In this document: positions 2,681 through 56,880 of the stretch, one piece after another
Layout of the letters: each line of letters opens with the position of its first letter
Numbering within the stretch: the stretch's first letter is position 1
Source: Cyanidioschyzon merolae
Lineage: Eukaryota
DNA length: 64,000 nucleotides
Assembly: GCA_000091205.1 (NCBI GenBank)
Contig: AP006491.2
Strand: one strand, 5' to 3'
Program-made: the position numbers and the translations under genes
Notes under the pieces: generated by a model
The model's database searches: none
What the model saw: only the letters and a program-made list of their open reading frames with translations
What the model was told of the DNA's origin: nothing

Positions 2681-3574
2681 CTACAAATGATTTGTTCCCG
2701 TCCCATGGCAGCGCTTACAGGTCAGCATACCCTTGTGTTGGCAGACGGGGCACGGTCGACACACGGTCGACGGATTTCCAAGACGCTCGCGTGCCTCTGC
2801 GTCACCCGCTTGCGCCCGCTCAACGAGCTGATTCATCTCCTCATAGCTGGGAAACGCGGAAACGTATCGGCAGCCAGCACCGCGACACCACGGGCACTGC
2901 CGCGCGCCCGCGCCGTCGCACCAGATACAGCGATCCATGTAGCTACTGAGCGGCGAGCCGAACCCGTCACTCGGATTCCGCTTTCGCCGGTAATACACAA
3001 CCGAGACTCCCCGCGATGCCGCACTGTCCGCAGCACCCGAGCCGGAACGTCTGCACGTGCAATCGTCAACGTCCTGAGCACAGGAACCGGTCCGTGCCTG
3101 CAGGGTGCTGCCTTCACAAGCACAGTCCGTCACTCCAGCAGCTGAAGCGTCCACAAGCGGTGCACGGTTGCCGGACGGCTGCGGACTCGACTGACTCTCT
3201 GGCGTAGCGGCTCCTGTTTCTGTACCTGTGCTTCTGTTTGGGTTCACCGTACGCGTGCCCGTAAGTACGCTCTGCCGCAGCTCGGACGCGAAGCGTGCCT
3301 GGAAACTAACTTCCGGGTGATACACGCCCGGACGCTCAGCCCACGCCGACAACTCCATCGCCACCGAGACCGCGTCGCGCTCATACGCTCGCTCCAGGCT
3401 GCGCCGCGTCGTCGCCCCGCCCTCGCCCAGCGCTCGTAGCTGCTGCCACCGACTCGAGTATCGACTCCGTTTCTCTACTGTCTGACCATAAATGCGCCAA
3501 CTATGTCTACTCGAAAGAAGTCTATCACCTTTCGTTCCGAGAACAAACATTGTCGTTCCCTCGGAGCTGTGCAC
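2681..3574 (-). CDS. DnaJ-like zinc-finger protein (BSD2/PSA2/LQY1 type). Four CxxCxGxG repeats at the C-terminus and a low-complexity N-terminal region. Start uncertain.
   Basis: C-terminal peptide carries CIWCDGAG, CPWCRGAG, CPVCQHKG and CKRCHGTG, i.e. four CxxCxGxG units in two pairs. The ORF is 297 aa. Confidence 0.5.
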   Translation of the reverse strand: MHSSEGTTMFVLGTKGDRLLSSRHSWRIYGQTVEKRSRYSSRWQQLRALGEGGATTRRSLERAYERDAVSVAMELSAWAERPGVYHPEVSFQARFASELRQSVLTGTRTVNPNRSTGTETGAATPESQSSPQPSGNRAPLVDASAAGVTDCACEGSTLQARTGSCAQDVDDCTCRRSGSGAADSAASRGVSVVYYRRKRNPSDGFGSPLSSYMDRCIWCDGAGARQCPWCRGAGCRYVSAFPSYEEMNQLVERAQAGDAEARERLGNPSTVCRPCPVCQHKGMLTCKRCHGTGTNHL

Positions 3575-7111: not shown

Positions 7112-10100
7112 TTACCGACGAAAACGATAGCGTACAAATGGTACCTCAACTTCCTCACCAGTGGAGGCATCTTCTGCCATGACTTCGAAAACCAGGAAGC
7201 GGTCCTTGTCGGTCAGTTGTATTTTTCCAACGGCTTGCGCAAGCTCAGTAAGCGGCGTCGCGCGGCGTTCCGCGGCCTTTTTCGGTGCTAACCAGCCTGA
7301 AAAGAGGATCGCAACGCCACACGACATCATGCTGATATGGAGACCAAGCTCGCGCTCAAAATGCTCCATGAACTCGGCCAACGTCAGATCGTGTCCATTT
7401 CCATCTACCTCGATACGATCCCACAGCGAGAACGTACGGTTACCGCTGGGTGACATGGGCTGCAACGGGGCCTGGATTGGTTCGCTAAAGTTGAAAAGTG
7501 AAAGTGCCAGGTTCACGTAGCTGTTGCGGAAGCGCTCGAGCACCTTGACGCGATCGACGAGCGGGACGCTCGTTCCGTTCGTCACAGCGGAGCTCGTGCT
7601 GATCGCGGAGAAACTCGAAGCTGAAAGCGCCCGTGGATTCGTCCTCAAGATCGGACGGATCTGAGCGAGCTTGTAGATCTCGAGACACACGAGCCCTGCC
7701 ACCAGCGCGGTACTCGTGGCAATCGCGGGTATGATTCGCCCCGCGATGCCTCGTGACTTGTGCTTGTCCGCCAGCGGTATCCCATAATTCAAAGCGCGCA
7801 AATTGCTCGCAGCGGTGACGAAATCCATGTCCCAGCGATCCTCGTCGTCTTTCTCGAACTCCAACGGATAGAGGGACAAGCTGGCAAATGATTCGGGTGG
7901 CGGCAAGCGCGCCAACAGCTGCTCAATGCGTTGTTGGTCGACATTGGCGGTCACAGCGGCGCCGCTTGCTTGCGCCTCCTCCTCAGAAGCGGCAATCTTG
8001 ACACCAGAACTCGGTTGGAAAGCAGGTACCGAAACATTCGCAACGATCGCTCGTACCTGCTCGCGATCTGTGCAGAGAGGTATTCCGAACGTCTCTGCGC
8101 GCAGGTTTGCCGCCGCTACAATGAACTCAAGGTGCAACGGATCTGCAGGATCGAAACGAAGCGGCGTCGGCGCCCGTTTCGTCCCGCTCCAAAATGGCTG
8201 TCCCGAGCTGTCAACCATATCTGGCGGAAACGCGTGAAGTAGCTGGCGAATATTGTTGACGTAGAGTTCTTCGAACTTGTTGCGCGCCCAAACCACGCAG
8301 TCCTTGAAGTTTTGCGGGCGATACGTCTGCAGGTTCTCAAGTACGTTCTCCAAAGCTCCAGAAAATATGCCGGGTCCCTGTTTCTCTAGCTCTGCGATGT
8401 ACTCAGAGCCTCGCTCCAGGTACTGCTTGGTATCCTCGATGGAGGCCTTGAAGAGGCCCTCAAACAAATCGCGAGCCCATTGAAGCGTATGTTCGATTCT
8501 GTAGGGGAAATTTTTCAGCGTACACATGGGAATGCTTCGCTCCGGCGGGTCGCGCGACGATCCGTATGACTCGGTGAGATAGGGAACCACCACTTGGGTG
8601 CTGCCTTTGGTGCCTAGCGTGCCGGAATCCAGCAGAGGTTTCAGATAGTAAACGCAGCGCTGATCGATATATAAACGAGCGTCAACATTATCCAAGGCCG
8701 TGCAAACCCCATCGAGCGGCTCCCAGAAATCATCGCTGAAGACATGCTCGGTGTCCGGTCCAACGCGCATCTCGAGCGCTCGAACGTTGAGCTCCGGATT
8801 CAGCCGCAGAGCGGCATCGCGTGCCGCCAGGGACTTGCTGCGGCCAATGTCGGTTGCTCGGAAGAGAAACTGCCGATTCAGATTGCTCCGTTCTATCGTG
8901 TCCATATCGGTAATTGCAATCGATCCACCATGACTCGCGAGTCCCAGTCCCATGCACGCCCAACATTTGAGGAGCTCTGCAGCAATCGCTCCGGCCCCAA
9001 CACAAAAGTAGGCCAGATCGTGAATCGTATCCTGCAACGCACGGCCAAAGACTGCAATCTGTCCGTCATAGCGTGTCCCCCGGGGAGCGCACTCCAGCTC
9101 GTTTGGCAACGGCGTCGGTAACGCCTCCATGGCGTTGAACGAAAAGATCTGGTGAATGGGGGTAAACTTGCCGGTGACTGCCTTGAGAACCTCCTGTGCG
9201 GCGATCCCACCAAGAATCGATGCCATCGGAGCGAGCTCCCCGTATACGGTTCTGACAAACGCGTTAAGCAATGCATCGTGCTTTTCTTGAATATCGGCGG
9301 GTAGCATGCGCTTGAACGCCGCAACTTCAGCCTCAGTACCAGGCGCAGGCAACCGTCCGAATTTTGATAGAGCCTGAAACATGGCATGCAATGCAAAGGT
9401 TCGCTCCTCATTCATAAAGTCCAGCGATGCAAACCAATTCGGGTCCACCACGTCTGAGAGCGTGGCGCTCTCTGGATCCCATGTCGACGCTGCCATTCTA
9501 TACAGCAGCTCAACCGGGTGAAAGTGCACCGTGCGGGGTACTTTCACTTCAGTGACGATGCCACCCCGTCGGTAGACGCCGGCCTCACGGGTGTCAGCGT
9601 CAATCACAAAAGTATACGGACTCGTGATCTGAACGACACGAAACATCCGGTTGGGTTCATTGAACATGGGCATTCCGTCCACCTCGGTGAACATGACATA
9701 CATTCCTTCCTCCAGGTCATGCCGCTGATCATCGAGGCAGGTGACGCACGCCTTTTCCTCATTCGAAATATGGCTGATATGCGCGGATCGTGGCTCCTCT
9801 CCGTTGTCATCGATAACTGTATGGGCGTCGCCAAAATCGTTGAGGACGTAGCCGAATACTCCTCGTGACTGAACGATCGTCAGTGGCACCCTAACCGATC
9901 GGCAGACGCGATCGAGCTCGATGTGCCTATCGATGGAGAGCTCGTTCACTAGCACAACTGCTGCAAACCCACGAATACGATCTGGATCAATGAGTTCCGC
10001 CCAGGACGCCGCGTCCTCCGTGTACACGTGACAGTACGGGTTCAGCTCCACTAGGTGCGGTACCACGACCGTATGAAGTGGTGTCCCCAGCAGTGACGCA

Positions 10101-10552
10101 TCGCAAGCGTAAAAATTGGCGGCCATATGCTGCAAAGCTAGTGGTGCTGGATCATAGACGTGGAGCGCATGGAAGCCAGCCAGCGCCAGGTCTTTCGCGA
10201 TCTCCGTTCCCGTCCCTGTGAGTCCAATCACCAGCACTGAAGCTCCTGCGAGGCGACGTTGCGCCTCGTGACCCAGCACGTACAGTTGACGCGAGTACAG
10301 GGACTCGTCTATGGCCCCGCTCTCTGCTTGCGTGCGCGACACGCGTTCCGGTGGGACAGAGTCCCCCAGCCGCAACATGCTTGTCCGGCGGTTTTTCCAA
10401 CTACCCGAAGGCGACTCACCGTCAGGGCCCCGTAACAGACGTTTGCTTCCGGTTCCCGTCTTGACGCTTTTCGCTTTTTCGCACAAACCTGCGCACAAAT
10501 ACAGCTGAAGACGACGCCTGCCGCTGATCGCTTTGTCGACTTTGTTCACCAC
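7112..10552 (-). CDS. UBA1: Ubiquitin-activating enzyme E1 (UBA1-like), single exon. The true start may be the internal Met at ~10378 (MLRLGDSV..).
   Basis: 1146-aa ORF. IDESLYSRQLYVLGHEA and VLVIGLTGTGTEIAKDLALAG form the ThiF/MoeB adenylation fold. A second adenylation domain and the catalytic Cys context PMCTLKNFP are present. The UFD-like C-terminus is present. Confidence 0.95.
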   Translation of the reverse strand: MVNKVDKAISGRRRLQLYLCAGLCEKAKSVKTGTGSKRLLRGPDGESPSGSWKNRRTSMLRLGDSVPPERVSRTQAESGAIDESLYSRQLYVLGHEAQRRLAGASVLVIGLTGTGTEIAKDLALAGFHALHVYDPAPLALQHMAANFYACDASLLGTPLHTVVVPHLVELNPYCHVYTEDAASWAELIDPDRIRGFAAVVLVNELSIDRHIELDRVCRSVRVPLTIVQSRGVFGYVLNDFGDAHTVIDDNGEEPRSAHISHISNEEKACVTCLDDQRHDLEEGMYVMFTEVDGMPMFNEPNRMFRVVQITSPYTFVIDADTREAGVYRRGGIVTEVKVPRTVHFHPVELLYRMAASTWDPESATLSDVVDPNWFASLDFMNEERTFALHAMFQALSKFGRLPAPGTEAEVAAFKRMLPADIQEKHDALLNAFVRTVYGELAPMASILGGIAAQEVLKAVTGKFTPIHQIFSFNAMEALPTPLPNELECAPRGTRYDGQIAVFGRALQDTIHDLAYFCVGAGAIAAELLKCWACMGLGLASHGGSIAITDMDTIERSNLNRQFLFRATDIGRSKSLAARDAALRLNPELNVRALEMRVGPDTEHVFSDDFWEPLDGVCTALDNVDARLYIDQRCVYYLKPLLDSGTLGTKGSTQVVVPYLTESYGSSRDPPERSIPMCTLKNFPYRIEHTLQWARDLFEGLFKASIEDTKQYLERGSEYIAELEKQGPGIFSGALENVLENLQTYRPQNFKDCVVWARNKFEELYVNNIRQLLHAFPPDMVDSSGQPFWSGTKRAPTPLRFDPADPLHLEFIVAAANLRAETFGIPLCTDREQVRAIVANVSVPAFQPSSGVKIAASEEEAQASGAAVTANVDQQRIEQLLARLPPPESFASLSLYPLEFEKDDEDRWDMDFVTAASNLRALNYGIPLADKHKSRGIAGRIIPAIATSTALVAGLVCLEIYKLAQIRPILRTNPRALSASSFSAISTSSAVTNGTSVPLVDRVKVLERFRNSYVNLALSLFNFSEPIQAPLQPMSPSGNRTFSLWDRIEVDGNGHDLTLAEFMEHFERELGLHISMMSCGVAILFSGWLAPKKAAERRATPLTELAQAVGKIQLTDKDRFLVFEVMAEDASTGEEVEVPFVRYRFRR

Positions 10553-12131
10553 CGTTTAGGGCAAGCGAGCAACCTAACCAGCTTATGAGACGTCCCAGAG
10601 CAACTTTTCCGTTCAAACGCTTGTCACCTGAGCACTTCCCCGATGAACTATGGGCACACAGTCAATTTAGACGATCCTGAACACAACGTCAGTCCCGAAC
10701 ATGCACCTGCACTCATTCGGCGCACGCAGGCAACGCACCGACTCCTGTCGTCACGCTGGCAGCGCTGGCGCCGCCTTTCGGGCGCGCGCTGCGGCGATTG
10801 CGTGCGGCTGTCGATGATGCGTGACAGCGCATTCGTGGCGTGGCACGACGCGCGGGAACATTCGCACATTCACCACCACAAACGCACACACGCATATCCC
10901 GTATGCATGCCACACACGTCTTGCTATTTTGGAAGACTGCAGAAGGCAGGCAGCGTGCCTCATATGCCGGCACGAAACCGGTGATCAGCAACGAGACGTC
11001 AACGCTCCCGCAGACGTTTTTCTCGCATGAATACCAGTCCAGTGGCACTCTGGGGACAAAGTGCTTGAGCGATCAGATGGCGTCCCTGGTGCCGAGTCTC
11101 CGGCAGATGCCGCACCGAGCCAGGGCCGCGCTCCTCTGCCTGCGCAGGTGACGGATCGAGGCATGCCGGGCAAGTCCGCCGTCGACGCCGCAGGAACATG
11201 AACAGGCGATGCCGAGCGCGTCCATCAGATTTTTTGTGGCGGATGACTGAAGAACCTGATGAAAACTCCCCGGATGCGCGTGCGCTACAAGCGATCAGGG
11301 CAGAGACCGCATCACCTCAAGGGATGCGATGAGGCGCTATGAGTCCCAGAATGGTGCGCTCCTCAGGCGTATCGGCTTGATGGGTCGTGTGTAATCTCCC
11401 GGATACCGAGGATGCCTCACAGGTATGCTGTGGTGCCCCAACTGTCGCCCTGCAGCGACAGATGGGCATTCCGATTCGTGTCCAGGCGTCGTTTCATGGG
11501 CAGGTGGCCAGGTGCGTATGCAGGAGCACGGCGACTATTACGTGCAGCGGGCACCGAGGACCACTGGAATGATCGCGCTTGCTTGCGTGGCGCGTATCAG
11601 AGGACGGGCGCGAGTCTTCTGGTATAGACCTGATCCAGAGGTAACGATTATTCCACACGAATGAACCTGGACTAGATGCACTGCGTAACAACCGTCCGCT
11701 TACGGGCTCTGTGCACACTTTCGTCCATCGTTGCATACCGGAACAGCAGAACAGTAGTGTCCGAAATCATCCATGTTTCGAAGCCGCTGCACGCAGAACT
11801 GAATGACTCGAGACTGTGCCGCCGGAACGCCCCTTCAAGCGCAGCATTGCCATACGAGTGCACCGGTGTACGTCAAGCGCGCTGTGCCCCCGCGTCTCTC
11901 TCCATTCCATGAGGACAGAACGACAACATCCCGAAATCGTCCTTGCCCTAGTAGAGAGGCCGCGCGAACAAGCGGATCATGCCGCTGCACCTGAGGCGCC
12001 GACACATGCAACCAGCAGCAGGGGCAGCAGTGTGGCGAAGGCAGTACGCGATCACCGGCATGGATCCTCCTCCAGACGCCGACGCCCAAAGCGCTGCCCT
12101 TAAATTAGGGCGGATCCGGCCTCTAAGGCCA

Positions 12132-12914
12132 ATGTGGTTGCGAACGTTTACCGCAGCGCGTTTTCGCAACGCGAACGCACGAGCGACGGGCCTGCTTCAC
12201 CACAGCCGGCTACGAGTCCGACATCGGCTGCATATGTCTGGGGCTGGCCAACCGATACCACTTGTGGCGGTGCTGGCGTTCGACCGCCCGGACGCTCGCG
12301 AGTTGCGTCGCGCGAACCGCACTGCACACTTGGAGTGGGCGACGCAGCAGCCGTGGATACGGCTCGGTGGCCCTTTGAGTGACACTAGCGCCACGGAACG
12401 CGAAAAAGAAAAAGTCATAGGCTCCTTCCTTGGTTTACAGACGGGATTTGTGGAACATCTCAAACAAGATCCATACACACAAGTTGGTCTCTTCGAACGA
12501 AGCGAGCGTTACGTGTGGCGCGTTTCCGTCGGCTCTCTTGCCAGTTTCCCACCAGACGCTGTGGAGCTCTCGCCACGTCATCAGGACAGATTTTATCTTA
12601 TCTGGGGTGTTGATAAGCCCGGTGCCCTCGAACGCCGGCTCGCTCAACGCGAAAAGCATCTAGCTTGGCTCCGAGCCAGCGAAACGCGCTGTGTGATTGC
12701 CGGTGCCGTTTTCGAGGAGGCACCTCCCAGTGGCGACGCGGCAAGTGCAAGTAAGCCACGAGGAACGATTTTAATTGTTCGGGGCTTTAACGATGTGCAT
12801 GAGTTGCGTTCATGGCTCGCAGGGGATCCGTACCAAGAGAGCAACGTCTTCGAGCACATCCATATTTTCGGGTTCCAGCCGATTATTTGTCGCGTTGATT
12901 CAAATTCGCCGTGA
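12132..12914 (+). CDS. Tandem YciI-like (Dabb/DGPF) domain protein with a putative transit peptide. The ORF extends upstream to 11979. The alternative start Met is at 12234.
   Basis: Two repeats of the YciI pattern. The first contains HLEWAT..RLGGPL...DPYTQVGLFE and the second contains HLAWL...GDPYQESNVFEHIHIFGFQP. The N-terminus is MWLRTFTAARFRNANARATG, R-rich with an early Phe. Confidence 0.6.
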   Translation: MWLRTFTAARFRNANARATGLLHHSRLRVRHRLHMSGAGQPIPLVAVLAFDRPDARELRRANRTAHLEWATQQPWIRLGGPLSDTSATEREKEKVIGSFLGLQTGFVEHLKQDPYTQVGLFERSERYVWRVSVGSLASFPPDAVELSPRHQDRFYLIWGVDKPGALERRLAQREKHLAWLRASETRCVIAGAVFEEAPPSGDAASASKPRGTILIVRGFNDVHELRSWLAGDPYQESNVFEHIHIFGFQPIICRVDSNSP

Positions 12915-14020
12915 ATGGAAGCGGATGCCGAAGCACAGGATATACAAGCTGCATGCGTTCTTGCACCAGCACCGGCACCGTTCGAAGGCGGCAGGCGACG
13001 CCGAGGCACGCGCTTCCATGGCAGCTTCGAATGCGTGCCGGACACGCGACGCTCGTGCATGCACCTATGGCGGGCATTCCACGGACCAGGCTCGCTGCGC
13101 TGCACAAGCAGACACCTGGGGGATAGACAGCTGTCGTGGGAACGTCGTATTGGCGCCTTGGTACGTCATGTCGCTTGGATGCACCAGAAAACGCCCACTC
13201 GTACGGTGCGTCACAGCCGAAAATTGCAGGACACGCACGGAGACTTGTTGCTGTTCCCGCTTTGATGAAGTAGCGGGAGGAAGCGCGCATTGCGTTGGAT
13301 TTGAGCTCTGCGTAGGCGGTGCCAAATGGATCTACTGGTTCAGTGGTGACGCGCGCTGTAGTTACGTGCGAGGCGCTCGAATTAAGACTCTAGCGCAACA
13401 TTCGCGGATAGTCGAAACGTATACAAGTCTCTAGGCGGTGTATATAAAGAAGAGCATTCCAGCCGTAAAACACGCGCTCAGATACAGTGCGCAACACGTC
13501 TACTCCAGCTAGTCGACTGCGTTTGCAACTCTCAATGGACGTTATCGCGTGTGCGCGCGTTCCCTAGGGCTGGACTCGAAGCGACGCTCTCTCGCTCTTG
13601 TTCGACGAGGAGAGGTATCGGTATTGATCAAGAAACACGTAAACATAGCGCCGCTCTGCAGTCTGCGGCGTTGTGGTACATCCAACGTTCGTGTGATTCG
13701 CACCCGGTTCTTCCAACGCAGACATAAATAACCCTCGATGCCGCCGTCGTTCTGTACCAGCTTGCTCAAGCATCCATCTGTTGATCAAGGACACGCGTGA
13801 GGCATCGAGGCGATTCTGCAATCCACATACGCAGGTGCCTCGCTCGATAACATCCGGAGCATCGACGGACACTGTGCTATATTCCATGGAGAGCCACTGC
13901 TAGGCAGGACACCTGGAACGCCTCTCCCAGGATCCCAAGTCAGATGCAGCGTGAGCGCTCCACAATGCCCAAGCGCAGCTTCCAATGAAGCATCGGTGAT
14001 CACGCGCTCTAGGCCATGAA

Positions 14021-14677
14021 CTAGATATTAGCCAGCGCCTCGTCACTGGGAGTTGGTCGTTTGAGCATCGGCCTCGTGAGCACAACAGCAGCGCCGACCA
14101 TAGCTCCAAGTGAATTCGCAAGCACATCCGCAAGCTCGAACCGGCGACGCACAAAGGGAATCAACGCTTGCAGTGTTTCAACTGCCAAACCTAGAAGAAC
14201 TGAAACAGCAACACTACGCCAAAATAGTGTCCATAGCGAAAGCTTCGTTCGGGTGGCGCTCGCGGAGACACGGTCAGCCGCTGCGGGCAACCGCTTCCAG
14301 TTGCCGCAAGTGCCGACCGTGCCCGCCTCAAGCTCCAGACCAGGCTCGATGTGAGCCGGCGCGAACCGCTCGCGGCCAACTTGGTAAGACTCACAAAGTT
14401 GTGTCGTCGTCAGCTCGGAACCTCGGGACTCAGAGGTGCTCGAAACGTCGTCCAGGAACACCGGTCGCTGCCAAGACAGCAAAGCTACGAGTGCGGCGAC
14501 CACAGCGTATGCCAGAAAGTGGAGTTGGAGGTCCACACGCCACGGCCAGTGCTGCAACAGTCCCTGCGCTGTAAACGAAGTAGGGCACAACGAGCCACCA
14601 ACCACTAAAAAAGTCCAACACGCGAGGCCAAAGCTCAGCCACCGGAGGCGCCGGGCGTCCATGGCTGCAGCGAGCAC
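14021..14677 (-). CDS. VanZ-like small membrane protein
   Basis: 218-aa ORF with about 4 hydrophobic helices. The C-terminal motif ETLQALIPFVRRRFELADVLANSLGAMVG resembles the VanZ family signature. Assignment is from memory of the family, not a search. Confidence 0.45.
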   Translation of the reverse strand: MLAAAMDARRLRWLSFGLACWTFLVVGGSLCPTSFTAQGLLQHWPWRVDLQLHFLAYAVVAALVALLSWQRPVFLDDVSSTSESRGSELTTTQLCESYQVGRERFAPAHIEPGLELEAGTVGTCGNWKRLPAAADRVSASATRTKLSLWTLFWRSVAVSVLLGLAVETLQALIPFVRRRFELADVLANSLGAMVGAAVVLTRPMLKRPTPSDEALANI

Positions 14678-15870
14678 TGTGGCCCCGCCAGTTCTGGACG
14701 AGATGTTGGCTCTGCGCTTCGTCTACGAAGCACATGAGCCTGACGCTGTGTTGCGCATTCAGAGGGCCGGCTTGCGCGTCTTCAGAGTACTGCTTCCCGG
14801 ACGCCGTTGCTCAGGAGCAGCTGGAACTTTTGCTGCGCTATCGGCGACCTTGTGATAGACGCAGCGTGCAGCCATTGCATCCCGGTTCGGTGTGCTGACG
14901 CTAGGCACTCGACACCCAGAGGATCGCACAAGCGAACCAGTGCTATGATCTCCAGAGGTAAGTTTGTGTGATGGTGAAAGTGATGGTGATGATGGTTTTG
15001 GTTGTTGCCCAAGGACCCTGGAGGTCTGTTGCTGAACGTTGGACGTTCTCTCGGATGCAGGTAACCCGCTTGCAATTGAGAATCCCCGATACCTGTTTAA
15101 ACGATCCGACATCCGAAAAACTATCGTCCGCAGCGCTGCCCCTCTGAGACGGTCATTGATGGATCACGCAGATCTTCCAGTCAGAAGCGCAGCTTCTCGG
15201 TCGGTGCTGAGAGTGAAGCATCTATCGCGTATGTGTCTTCATGGAAAAAGCGACGCACTCCTGTCTCTTCGCACATGCTCACGGTCACGCGTTGCTGCGG
15301 AATATGCACCAGTTGACCGCACCGCCTGATCAGCGCCTGAGGCGAACATGAGAACGTGCTGCGCAGCGCATGTGCGGCCCCGAAACGATTCCTCTCTAGC
15401 GCTCGATCCACTGATGGAATGAAGGTCGCGTCCGAGACTCCGCCACCGCGACGAAGCGATGCTACCAAGATGACGCATCTGATGATGCTGAGCGGTGAAC
15501 GGGTTCTCGCCTGCGTCCATGCGTGCGTGCGTCCTCGTATAGCGCCCCAGTTTTCCATACTGGACGGTAACGTGGCATTTACTGATCGCTTCGCACACAG
15601 GCAGTGTCAATGTGCACACGAACGCGTGTATGAGCATCGACTCTGGGGCGCGCTACTCTTCTGGCTCGCGACCACGTCCAGGCCGGTAACCGGGCACGCA
15701 CACCGGTCTTCCATATAGCGCTTTTCCGAATTCCGTAAACACTTTTCCAGAAGGTTTCCCTTGCCGCTGTTTGTCCCAACGCATGGCTGAAGCTTTGAAG
15801 CGCCCGGAGCTCATCAGATGAGCGCAGGCGTGGAAGCGAGCGCGACTCGATCGCGATGCACGGCGTCTCC

Positions 15871-16170
15871 CTCGAGTCGGCGCCCTCTGTGTGGTATAGA
15901 AAAGCCGTTCTAGCTCTATGAACTATCTGCTCCAGCGGTTCAGGCGCAAAGGCGGAGACGGAACTGCAGGTTCTAGGCACACACGATAGGTCGTATGAAC
16001 CGACCAGAATATCCTAGAAGAAGTATAGGTCGTGTAACTTGGAGGTAGGGTGTTTCATGGATACTTCACCGTGCACTGAAAAAAACACAAAAAGAAAGGA
16101 AAAAGCGCACAATCGGAGAACGCTGGCACAAGTAAACGTCTTGTCCATGAAAAAACAAGAAGAAAAAAAT
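15871..16170 (+). repeat. SINE-like dispersed repeat, near full-length copy in sense orientation. The head is ctcgagtcggcgccctctgtgtggtatag and the A-rich tail is gaaaaaacaagaagaaaaaaa. It is flanked by an imperfect ~12-bp direct repeat.
   Basis: Reverse-complement homology to 49335-49640 along the whole length. Flank cacggcgtctcc (15859-15870) matches catggcgtctgc (16172-16183) at 10 of 12 positions. Confidence 0.65.
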
Positions 16171-16503
16171 GCATGGCGTCTGCGCGAACAGCCGCTGCGG
16201 AGCAGCGTACCCGCCACGTCAACCGATATTGAACGAGGTGTTGGAGTCTCGAATGCCTGGGAGCGTGCCCCTACTCAGGTGCTTATCTATTAAATAAACG
16301 TCGCTGGAGCTATCGAATATTGGAGCGAGGTGCTCGCTATACTTGCTTGTGAATCGAACCGGCGAAGCGGGCGCTTTGCTCGGAGGTTCTCGCGAGGTCG
16401 GGTGGGCCGCTACCTCTGCCACAGGCATCGGCAGGTGCAGCGCACCGTGCACGTGGTGCCTCTTGGAGACGCGGCCCGCGTAGCGCTGGCCTTCTCGTCG
16501 CCG

Positions 16504-16535
16504 GTGTGTGTGTGTGTGTTTGTGTGTGTGTGTGA
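16504..16535. repeat. (GT)n microsatellite
   Basis: gtgtgtgtgtgtgtgtttgtgtgtgtgtgtg, seen directly. Confidence 0.95.
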
Positions 16536-17058
16536 GAGGACTATGGGGCTTTTGCGAGACCTCTACGGGACGCCGTTTCCGCTCTACCTAGCCGCCTTCA
16601 CTGCGGTATTTCTGGTTCAGCTCCGTGCAGCTCGTCTTGATTTGAATCTCGTGCGCCAACGGCTTCGACAAAGGTTTTCGGAAACCGCGCGAAATCTCGG
16701 CTCGGCAACGACCGGAGCCTCCGTATCAACAACGGCTACTCCGACCGAGGCGGGCGCGTCGGTGAGAAACCCTCCACAAGCGTCGCCGGCGTCACAGTCG
16801 AAAAAGTCTGGCTCACGTACAGCGGGACAGTTCGGACGAGTTGAATAGCCTCAGCGCCGAGAAACTCGGCCTATGCGAGATGGAACCATAGGCCGCATAA
16901 CACGCCTCATCGCACATTCTCGTGAACAAGTCGGGTACAGCGCGGCTCATTTGACTGAAAGACGGATGCATTTACTCCGGTTACAGCCGGGTTGACGTAC
17001 GCTCGGAACCAAGGCTCGCATTGGAGGTTGTTTTTTTCAACCTTGCGCCCTGGATGCA

Positions 17059-17937
17059 TCACCGAATAGCTTCGAGAACCTTGCTGAAATAGAAGCGCGT
17101 CGCCGTGAATGCCGACGACTGCACCCGCCAACCGTTGCGTTCTAGGGTCTCGCGAATTTCCTTCTCTGAATGTAAGTAAGCTCGAGTCGCCTTACTGGGA
17201 CCGGGGAAAAAGTCCCCAATGCGTTTCAGCAGCACGTAGTAAAGCGTTCGGGGTGCAAACGAAAGAATCAAGCGCTGCCGGGCGATTTTCGACAAGTGGT
17301 CGATCATGTCCGCAGCCTGCGCTGTAGGATAGTGGATCAGGACGTCTATGCAGCACACAGTATCGAAGCGCTCAGTTTCGGGGATGGACTCGAGGTCTGC
17401 GGTGCGAAACGCACAACGAGCAAACTGGTCAGCGGTGAGCAGCTGCTCTGCCCGCGTACGCGCCTCTGTAGTCATGGCAGTCGAGATGTCGCATGCCAGG
17501 AGATACCTGGGGTTGCGCTGCGCGATAGGAATGGCCAGAGAGCCGACCCCGCAACCAACGTCCAGAACAGTGTGTGTAGCCCAGTCCACGGAGGCTGCAT
17601 CAAGCATACCCAGTACCTTGTGTACGGTTTCCGCGTGCCCTAACCGGATGTCACGCTGAACGCGGTTTACCTGTTCGGAATCGGAGTAAATTCGACGCCA
17701 GCGCTCGAATCCAGTGGTGTTAAAGTAGTCCGTAACAACTTGTTTGTCATCAAGCTTTCGACAAAGCAGCCTAGGACGCGGAGCGCTTCTTGCTACTCGT
17801 CGCCCGTGCACTGAAACTCTCCGAGCGCCAAACGGGGCGCAACCTAGCGGTGAGCAGCGCACTGGGGGTTCGCGTTCACCCGAAGGATTCTGTTTCGCTA
17901 ACGCGCTACGGACAGCAGACGCCTGAATGATGAACAT
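17059..17937 (-). CDS. chlM: Mg-protoporphyrin IX methyltransferase (ChlM) with N-terminal transit-peptide-like extension
   Basis: YFNTTGFERWRRIY motif. SAM motif I is VLDVGCGVGSLAIPIA. The C-terminal Mg-por_mtran_C-like region is present. The N-terminus MFIIQASAVRSALAK is Ser/Arg-rich. Confidence 0.85.
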   Translation of the reverse strand: MFIIQASAVRSALAKQNPSGEREPPVRCSPLGCAPFGARRVSVHGRRVARSAPRPRLLCRKLDDKQVVTDYFNTTGFERWRRIYSDSEQVNRVQRDIRLGHAETVHKVLGMLDAASVDWATHTVLDVGCGVGSLAIPIAQRNPRYLLACDISTAMTTEARTRAEQLLTADQFARCAFRTADLESIPETERFDTVCCIDVLIHYPTAQAADMIDHLSKIARQRLILSFAPRTLYYVLLKRIGDFFPGPSKATRAYLHSEKEIRETLERNGWRVQSSAFTATRFYFSKVLEAIR

Positions 17938-19556
17938 GGAATCCCCAGGCGCTTCTACCGAAGATCGCTTACAACGATAGCAAGAGACGTCTGCGTTGCC
18001 TATATCGTGGAAACCTCGTCCGTGGATACCCCTATGAGTAAGGGATTGGCGACGGAGCTGGGATTGTCTGTCTTACACCAGCGGCGGCATCGCCCGGCGA
18101 GTACCGCTATCGACGCGACGCTGGGATACGGCAAGAGCGCAGCAGATGCTTTCGCTTCTGCAGGGTGCCGCTTCTGGAATGCCGTAGATAGTCACTGGCA
18201 ACGAGACCGGGTAGAGGTAGCGGTGGCGCGATTTCCAGCTGTATACGGGTTGCTTGGAAACTTCCGGGGGAGTCTGGAACGGTTTAGAGATCCTCAAGCC
18301 CGAAACCTATGGACGTGGTGCTCGGCGGCGATCGGTGTCTGCGCTGCTGCCTGACGCTGCAGAGACCGCAAGGGAGCTCGCGTATCCGGTCTTCTTCCGT
18401 TCTCCAGTGCGACCGGGTTTGAAAAGCGTGACACGTGAACTCTCGGGGTTACACTATTGCCCTCGAACGTAAAGTTTTCTCAGGAGAGTGGCCTCGGAAC
18501 CCCATGAGGCTGGATTGTGGCATGATAATCTCGTCATTTATATCGAGTAATAGTACAGTATTCTCGTTCACCCTTTCCCCAGGAAAACCTTTCCAGTTGT
18601 ATCTGAACCCCGCCCGAGTCTCGTTGCATGGCCCAGCCCATACCATTGCAGTATCGTGCTGCGGGACGTCATGCAACTCTGTGGCTCCAGGCCACTGATT
18701 TCTTCATCGCAAGCCTTTTGCGTTGCAGCACACTGCCCATACGGTGTACGGAACGATTCCCGGGGAAGTTCGCTCCACACAGCGCCGCTAGACGCTGCCC
18801 ATGCGCGAGGACTATATCGTAAGATCGATTCTCTTTGCTGTCGATGTCAGGCGCACACATACACACACCAGACCGACTTGCCCACAGCGCCGCACAGTGT
18901 CGCGTCCATAAGCGCGCCGCCGCTGCTACTCGAATACTGGACCAGCACCAGCAGCAAATCAAATGCCTTTACGTTGACTAGGTGAACACATAGGGTCGAT
19001 CCATTTGCACACGCGCAATATCCTTTGCCAGAGATTCGTGCCTATGATACAGGAAGGTTGACGGCTTTGGCCCGAGGAGGTCGCCTGTGGAACATCGGCC
19101 TGGTTCCCGCTTTCTGCTTATCGACGACGTTAGCACGACCGCCTTGCAGGATGCTCTCGAATGCGGCACCGTCCCCGTAGATCCGCATGGTACGAGACGC
19201 ACTCGGCGATATTGAAATGAGTCTGCATGGGGTTGCCCGCGCACACGCAGTGGCAGCACGTCTGATGCCGTGTAGCCAATTGCTGCCGCTGTAGACGAAG
19301 GCGCTGGAGCAGCGCCAAACAGACCCGCAACCCCTTGGCGGCCGAGAGCGGACGGCATGATCAGCTGTGTTGGGGTTGCTCGGCGCGGTTCGGCATCATC
19401 CCCCGAGGCAAGCCTCCGACGTGATTCCCTGTGCAGTGGCGGTCATTACATCATTCGACGCCGACGGGCGGGCGTATGGCAACTCGAAGCAGAAGGCAAC
19501 GAGGCTCCCACCCGTGTCGCTGTGACGTTTGTTAAATGGTGTGCGCATAGGCATCT

Positions 19557-21611
19557 CTACGAAGGTGGCGCTGCCGCAGACTTGAGATTTGGATCCTTCT
19601 TGATAAGCTCTTCTGCCTCGCGTTGCTCCCGTGCCATCGCCTCGGTGAACTGCCGATCCAAGCTACGAGCCGCAGCCAGCCACATGATGATGATGGATGC
19701 GAGAAAGACCGCGAGGAATGGCGTGCTGGCGGCCAAGGATCCAGTAGCGAAAATAAGGGCTTGCTGGATGAATGAGCCTCCCGACTTGCCCAGCGGGTTC
19801 CCGATCACATCGATGGCAGCTTTGCCCTTGCTCTTCGACTCTGCATCCAGTGGGATATACGCCATCTCCTTGCAAGGATCAAACAGGGAATACTTGCTGC
19901 CCTTTGAAGCGATGTTCTGCGCCGCACCGATGAGTACCGCCAGGAAGAGAGGCGTCGTGCCGAGCGCGGCAACGACTGGGCTCAGCTGCTTTGCGAATAG
20001 GGTTAGCGCAAAGAACATCATGCCCGTGATGCCTAGCGTAATCGGAGTGATCATTGCAGCCACGCCCCATCCGAAGCGGCGGAAGATGATACGGCTTGCC
20101 AACATCATGATAATGGTGAACGAGCCCGTGCAAGTCGAGAACCAGCCCATGAAGGTCGAATATGCGTTCGGGTCTGGATACTGCTCACGGAGCTTGCTCT
20201 TCCACGAGACCTCCACAATATTGATGGACATGCCGTACGCGATCACCAGAAGGGCCAAGTTGCGAATATACGGCGACGCGGCCAGAAACTTGGCTGACTC
20301 GACAAGACCCAGCTTGGTTTTCGTCTTGGCTTTCTTCTGACGCGCCGGATCGACCAATGTCGGATCCGTCATTACTTTGCGCTGCATGTAGTAGAAAACT
20401 CCCACGATGATTGATCCGCATACCGCCACTGCCCCCATTAAATAGCGCAAGCTCACGAGCCATCCGTCAACACCGGGCGGCAGATGTTGACGTATATCCG
20501 ATACGAAACGAACGTACTGACCCGAAAAGATCAGCGCAACGTTAGCCATCAGACCAAACACAGGGTACCACTTCTTCGCCTCGTCTACGGTGGTCACCTC
20601 ATTCGCAAATCCCCAGAACAAGAGCGAAACCACCACGGAACCCCAAAGCTCCGCGAGCGTATAGAACACTGCGGATGTCCAGTGCCCGATAATCGCCAGC
20701 GGAGGCGCGAATGTCGGTGGCAAATACTGCAGCGCCCAGCTCACAAACCCGCTAGGGTGCAAAAACGCCCTATTGGGATAAAGAAACCACGCATAGCTCA
20801 AGAAGAAAAGGAGGAAAGGCGCTATGCAGATGTAGAAAACAGTCTCCCGAGAGAACACATTCGTGAGCTTCGAGTACAAAATCGTAAACAGCACTGCACC
20901 GGGCAAGTTCGCATAGGTCTTCAAAAAGGGAATAATCTCTGCACCGGCCGCAGTTACAACCAGCACGTCCTTTGTATCACGCAGGATAGTGTAGTTGAAG
21001 AGAATGAGGAAGAACATAAGACCAAGGGGTATGATTTTGCGCAGCTCCCGGCTCGGCGGTGCAGGCGAGCTACTCCCGTTCGTACCGACCATGCCGTCAC
21101 CGTTCGTGCCGTACGCACTCGAGCCTGCTGCGGAAGCATCGGCCTTCAGAACGAGGCCCTCTTTTGCCTGGTCCTCTGGCTTCTGCAACCCATCCTTCTT
21201 TTGGGAACCCTTCTGCCACGAAGCCAGCAGCGCCGCTACCCCACCAAGCGCCAAGCCTACCAGTGCGCCAAGCGGCGTACCCCAGAGACGTGATGCCGGC
21301 GCCGCCGCTGCCGCCGCTGTCGCAAGTTGCGGCTGCTGAATAGACTTTTCAACTTTGGCCTCGCGATTCTGGACGATGCCAGTGCGTGGCACCACAACAA
21401 TCTGCGTCGATGTCGAGGCGGCGTTCTCTGCACCCGTGCCTGTACCTGCGCCAACACCCTCAGAGACTGCCACCAGTACGTGCCCAACGCGGGTTTTGGA
21501 ACGGTTGCGGGTACAGCTTCCGCGCTGCACACCAAGAAACCCCCTGTTCCGATAAGTCCCTCGAGGAAGAGACTGAAACGCTCTGAATGTCGTTGTGAAA
21601 CCAAGCATCAT
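19557..21611 (-). CDS. NTT: Plastid-type ATP/ADP (nucleotide) translocase, TLC/NTT family, with ~190-aa N-terminal presequence/linker
   Basis: IIPLGLMFFLILFNYTILRDTKDVLVVTAAGAEIIPFLKTY and 11-12 predicted TM helices, typical of the TLC family. The N-terminus MMLGFTTTFRAF has no signal peptide and contains Phe. The antisense ORFs 19357-20340 and 20484-21293 are treated as spurious. Confidence 0.9.
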   Translation of the reverse strand: MMLGFTTTFRAFQSLPRGTYRNRGFLGVQRGSCTRNRSKTRVGHVLVAVSEGVGAGTGTGAENAASTSTQIVVVPRTGIVQNREAKVEKSIQQPQLATAAAAAAPASRLWGTPLGALVGLALGGVAALLASWQKGSQKKDGLQKPEDQAKEGLVLKADASAAGSSAYGTNGDGMVGTNGSSSPAPPSRELRKIIPLGLMFFLILFNYTILRDTKDVLVVTAAGAEIIPFLKTYANLPGAVLFTILYSKLTNVFSRETVFYICIAPFLLFFLSYAWFLYPNRAFLHPSGFVSWALQYLPPTFAPPLAIIGHWTSAVFYTLAELWGSVVVSLLFWGFANEVTTVDEAKKWYPVFGLMANVALIFSGQYVRFVSDIRQHLPPGVDGWLVSLRYLMGAVAVCGSIIVGVFYYMQRKVMTDPTLVDPARQKKAKTKTKLGLVESAKFLAASPYIRNLALLVIAYGMSINIVEVSWKSKLREQYPDPNAYSTFMGWFSTCTGSFTIIMMLASRIIFRRFGWGVAAMITPITLGITGMMFFALTLFAKQLSPVVAALGTTPLFLAVLIGAAQNIASKGSKYSLFDPCKEMAYIPLDAESKSKGKAAIDVIGNPLGKSGGSFIQQALIFATGSLAASTPFLAVFLASIIIMWLAAARSLDRQFTEAMAREQREAEELIKKDPNLKSAAAPPS

Positions 21612-22094
21612 AGCGACCTCTATAACGATTGAACTTGTTCGACGTGCGTGTATGTCCTACAACAACCCGACACGCATTCGAATTCGCATACGCACGCATC
21701 CGGCGCACGCATGCACCGACGGTGATGAAACGCCATCGCGATGCGTGCGCAGCATGCGGCGGTGGTGGCGGTGGCGGTGCCGGTGGCGATGCCGGTGGCC
21801 AACTCCCGTACGTTGGGTCTGTAGGCGGCATCGCGATCGCCCTGCGATGCGGCTACGGCGGCGTCGGTACGCTTCCGCCGCGGCCCGATGCGCTACGAAA
21901 TCCGTTGACAGCGCGGTGACGTCGCGCGCGTCGAGCCTCGGATGCGGCGTTCTATCGCGTGTAGCGATGCTGCTGATTTTTTTCATTGACAAAACGCTTA
22001 ATTTGACCACGGGTCCTCGAATGAACGATGATCATTGACGACTAGGGTGATCGGCCATCGTAAAGCACCCTGCATCCGGGTTCCATCACCTGTT

Positions 22095-22200
22095 CTCTGA
22101 TGTAATGATCGTTTTTACGTTCTATCGTGCGCCGAGTACCTGCTTTTGAGCGCCTGATAGAACGCCTGTAGCGTCACGCATGGAGTAGCGGGAGCACCGA
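22095..22200 (-). repeat. Short fragment of the SINE-like repeat family
   Basis: gatcgtttttacgttctatcgtgcgccgagtacctgc..gagcgcctgatagaacgcc aligns to ggtcgtttcatacgttctatcgggtgcgcttagtacc of the 49335 copy. Confidence 0.45.
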
Positions 22201-22779
22201 CGCGTCCTGCATGCTATCCTGCGGAATCCTGGTGATGCAGCTCTGAAAAGCGGTATCTATGGCGGTCGCGCTGAAATATGTGCTTTCGACGGATTCGCTG
22301 CAACCGTTGAAGGTTCGGTTCCAGATGGTGTCGGTGTTCTGCGTGCTCGAGCGAGCAGGCTCTGGTGTATGATGCGGGCTGCCTGGTGCTTAGCGTCTGG
22401 ATGCAACGGATGCGCTTTCGCAAACAGTTCGTTATGTGCCGTTTGCGTTCGAAACTTGTTACCTTTCAGGAGCGAATGAAGCTTTCCACAGTACCCGTTT
22501 GAAAGGGTCTTTTAGAATGTAAAATCGGGGAATCTGAACAGAATACACGGGATTTGCGGTTGCTGTGCGCAAGCGAGGAAGAGCGCTTGATCAGCGCTGC
22601 TTCGTGGCATGTCGGGCTGGTCAGCATCGATTGTGCTCGTCCCAGCGAATCCAACCGCGCTTCTACACAGGATCACGCCCGGTCAGCGGCTCTGAATCGA
22701 ACTTTTTCTGTCGACTGCTCCGAGTCGCATGTCGTTTTCTGTTTCGCACATGCACATCAACCATGGTTTTCAGTGGATT

Positions 22780-23409
22780 TTAGCATAAACCATTATCTGA
22801 TCTGTAGCAGCGAAGTGCCCAGACTGCAGCCTCCAGGGACAAACCGAAGGCCACACCGACAGCCGCGCCTACCCAAGAGAGTGGCACTGCCCGCAAGCCA
22901 GTTGCACCGTCCACAACCTGTTCATGGATGAGATCCGTGAGCACAGCTCCGAGCCACCAGCCGAACGCGCCGAGGGCCAGACTGCCGAAAAGGAGCTGGC
23001 TAAGGAGGAGGGCGTCTCGGTTCCCGGAACCCGTGTGCAACGGGGCAGTCGCCTGTTTCCTCAGAGACTGCGTACACTGCTCATACTCGAGTCGTGCGAG
23101 GAACGCTCGGAACCTTTGCCGCGCTTCATCGTCAGCGCTTAACGAAGTGTCATCCTGCGGCAACTGCCAGCGCACGAGCGTGCTCTGAACGAGTTCACGC
23201 ACCGCATCCTGGGTGTATCCCGAACCGAGCGCGACGTCCAGCAGCTCTCTGTGCGATATCCAGCACTTCTCGAAGGTCGCTGTGTCGTCAAGCACTGAAC
23301 CAGGCCCGGAAATGACATCGCGCTGGCTGCGCCCCTGAGTCGCTGCTCTCAGAAAGGCGCGAACTTTGGGGTCTGTGGCGTCGAGCCACGGCATAGAGCC
23401 GACCAGCAA
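22780..23409 (-). CDS. Hypothetical protein with two C-terminal transmembrane helices. No recognisable domain.
   Basis: 209-aa ORF. The C-terminus LLFGSLALGAFGWWLGAVLT...WVGAAVGVAFGLSLEAAVWAL is hydrophobic. Divergently oriented to the guanylate kinase gene, 457 bp away. Confidence 0.35.
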   Translation of the reverse strand: MLVGSMPWLDATDPKVRAFLRAATQGRSQRDVISGPGSVLDDTATFEKCWISHRELLDVALGSGYTQDAVRELVQSTLVRWQLPQDDTSLSADDEARQRFRAFLARLEYEQCTQSLRKQATAPLHTGSGNRDALLLSQLLFGSLALGAFGWWLGAVLTDLIHEQVVDGATGLRAVPLSWVGAAVGVAFGLSLEAAVWALRCYRSDNGLC

Positions 23410-23866: not shown

Positions 23867-24508
23867 ATGGGTGCAGCGGCAGCAGCGCCTCGTTGCCTTG
23901 TGCTTGCCGGCCCTTCGGGTGTCGGCAAGGGAACCGTGCTTGCGCGTCTCAGTCAAGTGCTCCCGGACGTCTTCGGCTTCTCCGTATCGCATACGACGCG
24001 GGCACCGCGTCCTGGTGAGTGCGACGGGCGCGAATATCACTTTGTCACGGAGGAGGAGTTTCAGCGAGCCCGCGCTGAAGGCCGCTTCCTCGAAACTGCA
24101 TCCGTGCATGGTCAGTGGTACGGAACGAGCTGGGAGGCCATTGAACGTGTACGTCGCACTGGACGAATCTGCGTACTGGACATTGATGTGCAGGGCGTGC
24201 GCAGCATCCGAGCTGCAAAGCTTCCAGCGCTCGTCGTTTTCTTGCGACCGCCGAGCATGGCGGAGCTGGAGCGACGTCTCCGTGGTCGCGGGACGGAGGA
24301 CGAGGCCAAAATCCAACGCCGCCTCGAGACTGCTGCCGAAGAGCTGCGGATAGCACATGAAGAACCCTCGCTCTTCGATGCTATTATCGAGAACCAGGAT
24401 CTCGAAGAGACCTGCGCACAGATACGAAAACTGCTTGACGAGGACGTGCAGGCGCTTCGCGGTGTGCGCGAGGCTGGAGCAGCATCCGCTGCACAGCGAA
24501 CGAGTTGA
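23867..24508 (+). CDS. GUK1: Guanylate kinase. The ORF extends upstream to 23762. The Met at 23867 precedes the P-loop.
   Basis: P-loop LVLAGPSGVGKGT. FSVSHTTRAPRPGECDGREYHFV. LDIDVQGVRSIR. The LID/NMP-binding arrangement is typical of GMP kinase. Confidence 0.9.
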   Translation: MGAAAAAPRCLVLAGPSGVGKGTVLARLSQVLPDVFGFSVSHTTRAPRPGECDGREYHFVTEEEFQRARAEGRFLETASVHGQWYGTSWEAIERVRRTGRICVLDIDVQGVRSIRAAKLPALVVFLRPPSMAELERRLRGRGTEDEAKIQRRLETAAEELRIAHEEPSLFDAIIENQDLEETCAQIRKLLDEDVQALRGVREAGAASAAQRTS

Positions 24509-47820: not shown

Positions 47821-49044
47821 TTAGTATTTGTAGCCAGCCTCAAACGTACCAGTTACATCCAGTGTCGGCTCTGAACCCGGAACGTATTTGCCCAGACTCG
47901 CCTTGCTGTTGGCTCGCGCCCGTGCAAGAAGCGCCTCCTGAGCCGCCCGCACATTCTCATCCTTACCCATCCACGATTTGAGGCACGACTGCTGCAGCGC
48001 GCGCCCATATGAGAAGGACAGCGCCCACGGTCCCTTGCGTGGACGGCTGTTCAGGGCGTTCAGGTTGATCGTGGCCTCTTCCTCCGTCATGCCACCAGAC
48101 AAGAACATGATACCAGGCACCGCTGCAGGGATCGTCCGCTCCAGCGTGCGAACCGTCATCTCAGCAATCACATCCGGCTTGACCTGCTGCTTGCTATCGG
48201 CACCAGGGAGCGTCATGGATGGTTTGAGAAGCGAGCCCTCCAGGAAGACTCCCTGTTGTTGGCACAAGTTATAAAGAATGGAGTAGACCTCCTCCTGGAC
48301 CTCAGCACACCTCTCGATGGTGTGGTCGCCATCCAGCAGAACCTCGGGCTCGATGATCGGCACCAGGCCCTGATCCTGCACAGTTCGGGCGTACCGCGCG
48401 AGACCGTAGCAGTTCTCGAAAATTGCCTGGCGAGTCGGACCGCCTGGTGCAATCTGGATAACCGCACGCCATTTGGCAAAGCGCGCACCCTGAGCGTAAT
48501 ACGCGGCTGCTCGCTCCGACAACCCGTCCAGGCCGGTGCACCAGGTCTCGTGCGCGAGCGCTGCGCCATGGAGCGGCGCCAAACCCTTGTCCACCTTGAT
48601 GCCTGGAATCACGCCAATGTTCCGCAGGCAGTCCACAAATGGACGACCATCCCGAGTGCTCTGATACAATGTCTCTTCGTACAGGATAGCACCGCTGATG
48701 TACTCACCGAGCCCCTGGCACGTGAAGAGGAGCTCGCGGTACCCACGCCGGTGCGTCTCCGTGTTCTCCACACCAATCGTTGCCAAGCGCTTTCCGATGG
48801 TTTTCGTGCTCTCGTCCACTGCAAGAATACCACGACCAGGCGATGCTATCTTGTTTGCAGTCTCCACCAGCTCGTCTGCGAATTTCTCCACCCCGCCCGG
48901 GCGCACGCCCCATGAGCGCATGCGCAGCGTCACAGAACGCGCCACTCGCGCACGAGGAGCGCCAAGAGACTTTTGACGCAAGTTAAGCTTCACATTCTGT
49001 TGGAAGAAAGAGGAATTAACTGGAATCTGAACGAATGCCTCCAT
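47821..49044 (-). CDS. FBA: Class I fructose-1,6-bisphosphate aldolase with N-terminal transit-peptide-like extension. The ORF extends upstream to 49314.
   Basis: [24 protein letters not shown]. Schiff-base Lys context [13 protein letters not shown]-terminal [10 protein letters not shown]...Y. The presequence [14 protein letters not shown] precedes it. Confidence 0.92.
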
Positions 49045-56181: not shown

Positions 56182-56880
56182 CTAGGGCTCCATTGGTGCG
56201 CCCGCATCAGGTAGAATGCGATGACGCACGAGCGCTCTGTAATGCTCGGGACGAAAGCGTCTAATGTACTCCGCTAATTTTCCCCGCACGATTGTCTCTG
56301 TCGATGCAATGCCTATCTCATCCGCGAATGACTGAATCAGCGTTTTCGCTGACGCAACGGCCTCCTGCATGATTGGACTGGTTCCGCTAAGCAATCGATC
56401 GTTATCGCGATATAGAACCAGTACTTCAATTTCGCCAACGGTGTAACCGTAATCCGTCCGATCCAGATCGATGTTCAAGGTCTGCCCGCGATAAACGACT
56501 TGTAAAGTTTCGCGCTCTGTCACGATCCGGGCAAACGGTGCTATGCGGCCTTCCCGAAGAGCCGTGTCCGGGCTCCACCCGAGCGCAGCCTCCACGTCTG
56601 CGAACTCGTCCAACTCTCGGTAAGTGTCCAGCGTAGCTGTGCGTGGCGTTTTTCCCCAAGGTATTTTGAGCTGCCACTGCAGCTCACGTTGCCGTAGCCA
56701 CCAGTCGCGCAGTGTTAGCGCCCAGGCATCTGGTACGTCAAAATAGGTATCCGTAAAGCAGGCAGTACGCAGCCGACGTTTCTCTGACACGATCGACGTC
56801 GACTCGAGCCTCTCCAGCAACCGTTGGGTCAGTTCTGGAGACAGCACAAACTTGCGCTCTACTTCAATGCTAGCCGTCAT
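56182..56880 (-). CDS. CYTH-domain protein (thiamine-triphosphatase/CyaB-like triphosphate tunnel metalloenzyme). The ORF extends upstream to 57111.
   Basis: MTASIEVERKFVLSP carries the ExExK hallmark. Downstream acidic/basic tunnel residues are present. ~230 aa from the Met at 56880. Confidence 0.75.
   Translation of the reverse strand: MTASIEVERKFVLSPELTQRLLERLESTSIVSEKRRLRTACFTDTYFDVPDAWALTLRDWWLRQRELQWQLKIPWGKTPRTATLDTYRELDEFADVEAALGWSPDTALREGRIAPFARIVTERETLQVVYRGQTLNIDLDRTDYGYTVGEIEVLVLYRDNDRLLSGTSPIMQEAVASAKTLIQSFADEIGIASTETIVRGKLAEYIRRFRPEHYRALVRHRILPDAGAPMEP

Follow-up and report, generated by a model that had tools for sequence, protein, structure and literature searches.

What is encoded at positions 19557-21611 of a 64,000-nucleotide stretch of Cyanidioschyzon merolae DNA (contig AP006491.2 of assembly GCA_000091205.1; the whole stretch is referred to below as the window), and what does the N-terminus of the encoded protein tell about the host? 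A sequence-only reading of the window had proposed an ATP/ADP translocase of the TLC family and, from plastid gene content and phenylalanine (Phe)-containing presequences, an intron-poor red alga as the source. The segment is almost certainly a single-exon C. merolae gene for a plastid nucleotide transporter (NTT) of the 12-helix TLC/NTT type, with a presequence of red-algal type that would target it. The gene and its core are as follows:

19557-21611, minus strand: NTT gene, encoding the precursor of a plastid exchange transporter for ATP/ADP (NTP/NDP); 684 amino acids (aa) plus stop, single exon
19647-21050, minus strand: TLC core of NTT (aa 188-655) with 12 predicted helices; delimited by the Pfam/TIGR match limits, the AlphaFold2 (AF2) model, invariant columns, and the alignment to PDB entry 9j3j

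Gene identity and conserved core

The NTT open reading frame (ORF) had the N-terminus MMLGFTTTFRAF, its start codon being the first after an upstream in-frame stop. An exact-sequence look-up found all 684 residues identical to BAM79945.1 of C. merolae 10D (also XP_005536231.1 and UniProt M1V528; annotated as 'chloroplast ADP,ATP carrier protein'), which is the same gene with no sequence difference. Two family profiles were matched nearly over their full lengths: (i) Pfam TLC (PF03219) by aa 188-655 (profile positions 21-491 of 491, E 3.7e-187, 623 bits with a cut-off of 21) and (ii) NCBIfam TIGR00769 'NTP/NDP exchange transporter' (profile positions 4-472 of 472, 631 bits with a cut-off of 387). 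By every sequence criterion tested, the protein belongs to the TLC/NTT family, and the translocase proposed at these coordinates was thereby recovered; the proposal had come without a strand, and NTT and the genes for ChlM and class I fructose-bisphosphate aldolase (FBA; see below) were all located on the minus strand.

The AF2 model of NTT (input of 32 homologues) displayed 12 long, confidently predicted helices between aa 187 and aa 672; its mean predicted local distance difference test (pLDDT) score was 76, and the values in the core were mostly 83-97. In sequence matches, the core was aligned almost gap-free with Arabidopsis thaliana NTT1 (PDB 9j3j/9j3l/9j3m; 9j3j is named chloroplast 'ADP,ATP carrier protein 1') over aa 189-667 at E 4.3e-177 and with a second NTT structure, PDB 9j3n (also 'ADP,ATP carrier protein 1'), at E 1.9e-147. 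The charged residues K231, E321, E467, and K609 were invariant in 32 sequences and identical in the 9j3j alignment; from their spacing in that alignment, we take them to be the counterparts of the four charged AtNTT1 residues within the membrane (Lys/Glu/Glu/Lys) that Trentmann et al. in 2000 reportedly found important for transport. The literature yielded no usable paper on the C. merolae NTT locus tag or describing the 9j3j/9j3n structures.

Two long antisense ORFs were present within the NTT gene (19357-20340, plus strand, 327 aa; 20484-21293, plus strand, 269 aa). Both had an Arg-rich, low-complexity look, and they were taken as by-products of guanine + cytosine (GC)-rich coding sequence instead of genes.

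Proposed function and direction of transport

As judged from the sequence, the NTT precursor would be synthesized in the cytosol, and its basic, acid-poor N-terminus with early Phe, being of the red-algal transit-peptide type, would deliver it directly to a two-membrane plastid with no endoplasmic reticulum (ER) step. By analogy with the family, the 12-helix core would be inserted in the inner envelope and would run an exchange of ATP against ADP (plus phosphate) that connects the cytosol with the stroma. Several points weigh against this assignment: (i) the N-terminal extension of NTT is 187 aa long with a conserved hydrophobic helix, which a simple transit-peptide model leaves unexplained; (ii) the strong ATP exporters singled out in the text of PMC11632070 were the Cyanidiococcus and Gracilariopsis proteins, not that of C. 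merolae; and (iii) Phe was found at positions 2-6 in 4 of the 11 other confirmed annotated N-termini of the window.

The same gene in the same organism might have another role, the red-algal NTT mainly exporting photosynthetic ATP to the cytosol, or accepting a broader range of nucleotides, as against the import carried out by land-plant NTT1. The text of PMC11632070 bears on this in both directions: in that 2024 study, the C. merolae NTT, regarded as a putative ADP/ATP translocase of the plastid, was expressed in Synechococcus elongatus, the extension at its N-terminus and its conserved Phe were already marked, ATP export by red-algal NTTs was argued to be possible, and export behavior was reported to differ from that of Arabidopsis NTT1. 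Nevertheless, the C. merolae construct was not highlighted in that text beside the two strong exporters, and the assays were heterologous and whole-cell, apparently using the complete precursor together with its extension. In addition, NTTs are exchangers, and the direction of transport therefore depends on gradients. A predominantly exporting (or broader-range) red-algal NTT is regarded as rather unlikely.

Phe-containing presequences of NTT, ChlM, and FBA

The plastid ATP/ADP exchanger NTT shared its type of N-terminus with two other genes of the window:

17059-17937, minus strand: ChlM, precursor of Mg-protoporphyrin IX O-methyltransferase, with 292 aa and full identity to BAM79944.1 (TIGR02021, exact match)
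47821-49044, minus strand: chloroplast precursor of class I FBA, with 407 aa and full identity to BAM79953.1 (NF033379, exact match)

ChlM and FBA are further nuclear-encoded plastid proteins with a like presequence, and both were found where the sequence-only reading had placed them, with the N-termini it had quoted. ChlM matched TIGR02021 BchM-ChlM with 214 bits (above the cut-off) from aa 64, leaving a presequence of about aa 1-63 (window 17749-17937) with the start MFIIQASAVRS and Phe at 2. FBA matched NF033379 with 447 bits, its aldolase domain beginning at aa 58, and had a presequence of about aa 1-57 (window 48874-49044) with the start MEAFVQIP and Phe at 4, 13, and 14.

The FBA ORF stayed open upstream to 49314 (90 further codons). 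In close environmental strains, FBA was invariant from MEAFVQ on, and the 90 upstream codons were substituted or wholly divergent. The start at 49314 was rejected and that at 49044 retained, because the annotated 407-aa protein starts at 49044 and the strain variation lies only upstream of MEAFVQ. A use of the class I plastid aldolase as a discriminator between primary red and secondary lineages was dropped, since a class I enzyme is found in the plastids of diatoms as well (PMC2173943).

N-proximal Phe was present in all three presequences (F2 in ChlM, F4/F13/F14 in FBA, and F5/F9/F12 in NTT), in accordance with the Phe motif as defined in PMC7038456. The three had 13-21% Arg plus Lys and 3-4% Asp plus Glu (13% and 4%, respectively, in NTT, where a hydrophobic core was absent). 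They had been described as Ser/Arg-rich: richness in Arg, together with paucity of acidic residues, held for all three, but richness in Ser/Thr held for NTT only (19%, versus 10-11% in ChlM and FBA, where it was not above that of the mature parts). Signal peptides were sought through the maximal Kyte-Doolittle (KD) 11-mer over all windows that begin within the first 35 residues, which is a measure of hydropathy only; by this measure, none was seen in NTT (as had been claimed), ChlM, or FBA (maximum 0.81-1.16), while the secondary-plastid homologues from Thalassiosira, Triparma, Heterosigma, and Vitrella reached 2.7-3.65 within their first 20 residues.

That the Phe is a mere coincidence carrying no targeting information has some grounds within the window, where the other N-termini with Phe at positions 2-6 were those of CMI032C (MFVLG), a CYTH protein (MAFGEG), a Snf7-like protein (MAHLFS), and a 'tyrosine--tRNA ligase' (MEAGRF). 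Among these four, Snf7 belongs to ESCRT-III and is cytosolic. The resulting proportions, 3 of 3 plastid proteins and 4 of 11 others, gave p ~0.1 (hypergeometric; a small sample with three cases, some of the others possibly being organellar), and the Phe motif alone is thus weak and unspecific evidence within the window, because these 4 of 11 N-termini carry it too. Against coincidence, nearly all red-algal NTT homologues began with M-x(1-7)-F, and MEAFVQIP of FBA was similar to this pattern. Moreover, the motif is documented, as the sequence-only reading had it: rhodophytes and glaucophytes have a Phe-based motif at the extreme N-terminus of their plastid targeting sequences (PMC7038456, PMC2222254, PMC9407449), Phe residues are characteristic of rhodophyte transit peptides according to C. 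merolae import experiments (PMC9407449), and a C. merolae transit peptide with residues 2-13 deleted was tested for import-factor binding (PMC7038456, PMC9407449, PMC2222254). The transit peptide of Arabidopsis NTT1 differs in this respect, plant transit peptides having no obligatory N-proximal Phe (PMC7038456). A coincidental Phe in NTT, ChlM, and FBA is accordingly held to be improbable; the motif is consistent with a red-algal origin, although not significant on three cases, and it is the exact protein matches that are decisive.

Source of the window

In exact-sequence look-ups, 14 ORFs of the window corresponded to C. merolae 10D proteins BAM79941.1-BAM79958.1, in ascending order along the window: hypothetical protein CMI032C, ubiquitin-activating enzyme E1, ChlM, NTT, guanylate kinase, 'tyrosine--tRNA ligase', Snf7-like protein, CMI046C, FBA, catalase, CMI308C, a thiamine-triphosphatase-like CYTH protein, sulfate permease, and an RCC1-type exchange factor. 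All 14 were uninterrupted ORFs and belonged to chromosome 9 of C. merolae 10D, and 13 of the 14 were identical to the annotated proteins end to end, the exception being the sulfate permease. The window had a GC content of 56.4%, uniform across it, instead of the ~58-60% given in the sequence-only reading, and ~19-20 genes in 64 kb; these genes and their uninterrupted ORFs agree with the single-exon structure and the 2-5-kb spacing that had been noted. For comparison, the C. merolae genome has 55% G+C and introns in 0.5% of its genes; it comprises 16.55 Mb with 4,775 genes, at ~3.5 kb for each gene, and a chromosome 9 of 810,151 bp (PMC1955436), and the window signature (GC content, single-exon ORFs, and gene density) fits these values. 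The exact protein matches thereby bore out the deduction of an intron-poor red alga.

The nearest relatives of NTT were those of Cyanidiococcus (84% identity) and Cyanidium (74%), then those of other red algae (such as Hildenbrandia and Porphyridium); Vitrella, diatoms, and other red-derived secondary-plastid lineages ranked after the red algae among the matches. Best matches in a secondary-plastid lineage together with bipartite presequences had been named as the outcome that would speak against a red alga; the closest NTT matches were in Cyanidiophyceae instead, and NTT, ChlM, and FBA were without signal peptides by hydropathy.

For a host with a secondary red-derived plastid (a diatom, cryptophyte, or chromerid), in which NTT would need a bipartite signal-plus-transit presequence, it can be said that the NTTs of such algae, exemplified by those of Thalassiosira pseudonana (P0148) and Vitrella (P0117), were ~57-59% identical overall and 65-68% identical over the TLC core and kept the Phe motif, carrying their Phe beyond the point at which the signal peptide is cleaved; however, they harbored a hydrophobic ER signal peptide at the start (KD 11-mer 2.7-3.65), which NTT of the window did not have (at most 1.16), and the exact identity with C. 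merolae proteins and the Cyanidiophyceae as the closest NTTs leave virtually no room for such a host.

The TLC translocases of Chlamydiae and Rickettsiales (Protochlamydia NTT1, PDB 9j3n; chlamydial Npt1) share with NTT the family, the 12-helix core, and counter-exchange, but theirs are without an N-terminal targeting extension, reside in the bacterial inner membrane, and import host ATP. A bacterial origin of the gene (from an energy parasite of the Chlamydiae/Rickettsiales, or as contamination), to which the occurrence of the family in obligate intracellular bacteria and the 9j3n match might point, can be dismissed in view of the 187-aa N-terminal extension outside the family profile, the uniform GC content of the window, the exact C. 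merolae match, and the eukaryotic flanks (ubiquitin E1, ESCRT-III Snf7, RCC1, and ERCC4), which with catalase place NTT in a eukaryotic nuclear context.

Hot-spring metagenome contigs (JGI and ENA; loci L001-L006) were collinear with window 9548-23014 over up to 13 kb at 99.2-99.5% identity (blastn). These contigs encoded an identical NTT, which indicates that natural populations very near strain 10D are represented in public metagenomes.

The locus tags were non-monotonic along the window (CMI032C ... CMI046C ... CMI308C, window 2681-55950) in spite of the ascending BAM accessions; the 3xx tags seem to be interspersed among low-numbered ones and are no marker of map position. The import factor CMI311C (PTF1) was considered as a possible neighbor of CMI308C in the window, but Pfam found no Sey1/RHD3-like GTPase domain in the scanned ORFs. 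Scans of the whole window for tRNA genes and Rfam families gave no match.

Conserved hydrophobic helix in the N-terminal extension of NTT

The 187-aa extension of NTT, which had been described as a simple transit peptide, proved to be composite and contained an internal hydrophobic helix. Three parts were distinguished:

21300-21611, minus strand: NTT aa 1-104, a region resembling a transit peptide, with Phe at 5, 9, and 12; from composition, hydropathy, and low conservation
21192-21299, minus strand: NTT aa 105-140, conserved hydrophobic helix and, after it, a basic cluster; from KD values, AF2, and an island of identity
21051-21191, minus strand: NTT aa 141-187, hydrophilic disordered linker from the extra helix to the core; AF2 pLDDT <50 at aa 147-181

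The extra hydrophobic segment (aa ~105-140) was RLWGTPLGALVGLALGGVAALLASW, followed by the basic cluster QKGSQKK, and its KD 19-mer value of 1.94 equaled those of the core helices. AF2 placed a helix at aa 113-140 (pLDDT 57-70) with disordered stretches on both sides, pLDDT being <50 for aa 1-111. In aa 105-140, NTT was 87/65/58% identical to the sequences from Cyanidiococcus, Cyanidium, and a third source of Cyanidiophyceae type, respectively; the values were 38/16/15% for aa 1-104 and 75/29/33% for the linker. The same architecture, composed of a red-type N-terminus and a hydrophobic 19-mer with a Lys/Arg cluster directly after it, was found in 33 of the 120 best NTT homologues, the 19-mer being located 46-69 residues upstream of the core in these 33; it was absent, among the homologues examined, from those of Porphyridium, Erythrolobus, and the secondary-plastid lineages. 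The precursor of Arabidopsis NTT1 is not known to have a hydrophobic helix between the transit peptide and the core.

The extra helix would be a 13th one, because the core already has 12. It is tentatively proposed, at somewhat less than an even chance, that the helix with its Lys/Arg cluster has one of two roles, in both cases specific to rhodophyte NTTs: the mature protein may keep it as a 13th transmembrane helix and membrane anchor, or it may be a dedicated signal for inner-envelope sorting or stop-transfer, which would be removed. The basic cluster lies C-terminal of the helix, and by the positive-inside rule that side would be stromal. In its accessible part, PMC11632070 counts 12 transmembrane helices for NTT and does not discuss a helix at aa ~105-140; since 12 helices alone are mentioned there, the element may be undescribed.

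Other genes in the window

The remaining observations concerned five genes. BAM79947.1 (25633-27729, minus strand), named 'tyrosine--tRNA ligase', matched in Pfam/NCBIfam only a C-terminal tRNA-binding (EMAP/MetRS-beta-like) domain within about aa 470-632, and no synthetase catalytic domain of Pfam or NCBIfam was matched in its first ~470 residues; because no catalytic domain was matched, the name may derive from the C-terminal domain. CMI032C (2681-3550, minus strand) started with MFVLGTKG (Phe at 2) and displayed a weak, sub-threshold match to the BSD2 cysteine-rich domain (E 1.1e-4, 22.7 bits with a cut-off of 27); possibly it, too, is plastid-targeted and resembles a zinc-finger chaperone. 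The CYTH protein 'similar to thiamine triphosphatase' (56182-57111, minus strand) was annotated with 309 aa and had its CYTH domain at aa 82-231 after an extension of ~81 aa; its start, MAFGEGYLF, looks like a red-type transit peptide, but in many gene calls from metagenomes the protein has only 232 aa, so that this start is uncertain.

Two genes had near-identical paralogues on other chromosomes of this genome, which is known to have low redundancy: (i) the guanylate kinase (23867-24508, plus strand) fell into the same 90%-identity cluster as BAM79155.1 on the 513,455-bp chromosome 4 and (ii) the sulfate permease (57184-59904, plus strand) into the same 90%-identity cluster as BAM79879.1 on the 739,753-bp chromosome 8. 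The sulfate permease ORF had 906 aa from the first ATG, versus 670 aa in the annotated BAM79957.1, the ~236 upstream codons being open and unannotated and the Pfam Sulfate_transp domain beginning at aa 351 of the 906-aa ORF; an exact match to the full 906-aa ORF was found only in a MetaClust entry, with BAM79957.1 in the same 90% cluster.

Implications

The deduction of an intron-poor red alga from raw sequence, made through plastid genes and presequences, was confirmed to strain and chromosome, which is a useful calibration. The NTT, ChlM, and FBA genes, their annotation as plastid precursors, the Phe motif, and the source organism are all already known, and in these respects the locus adds nothing biologically: a complete genome sequence has existed since 2007, the three genes were annotated as plastid precursors, and NTT had already been cloned and assayed. 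Of modest interest at this locus is only the conserved extra helix of red-algal NTTs, which bears on the sorting of polytopic inner-envelope proteins in the red lineage and on whether heterologous assays with the full precursor reflect the mature transporter.

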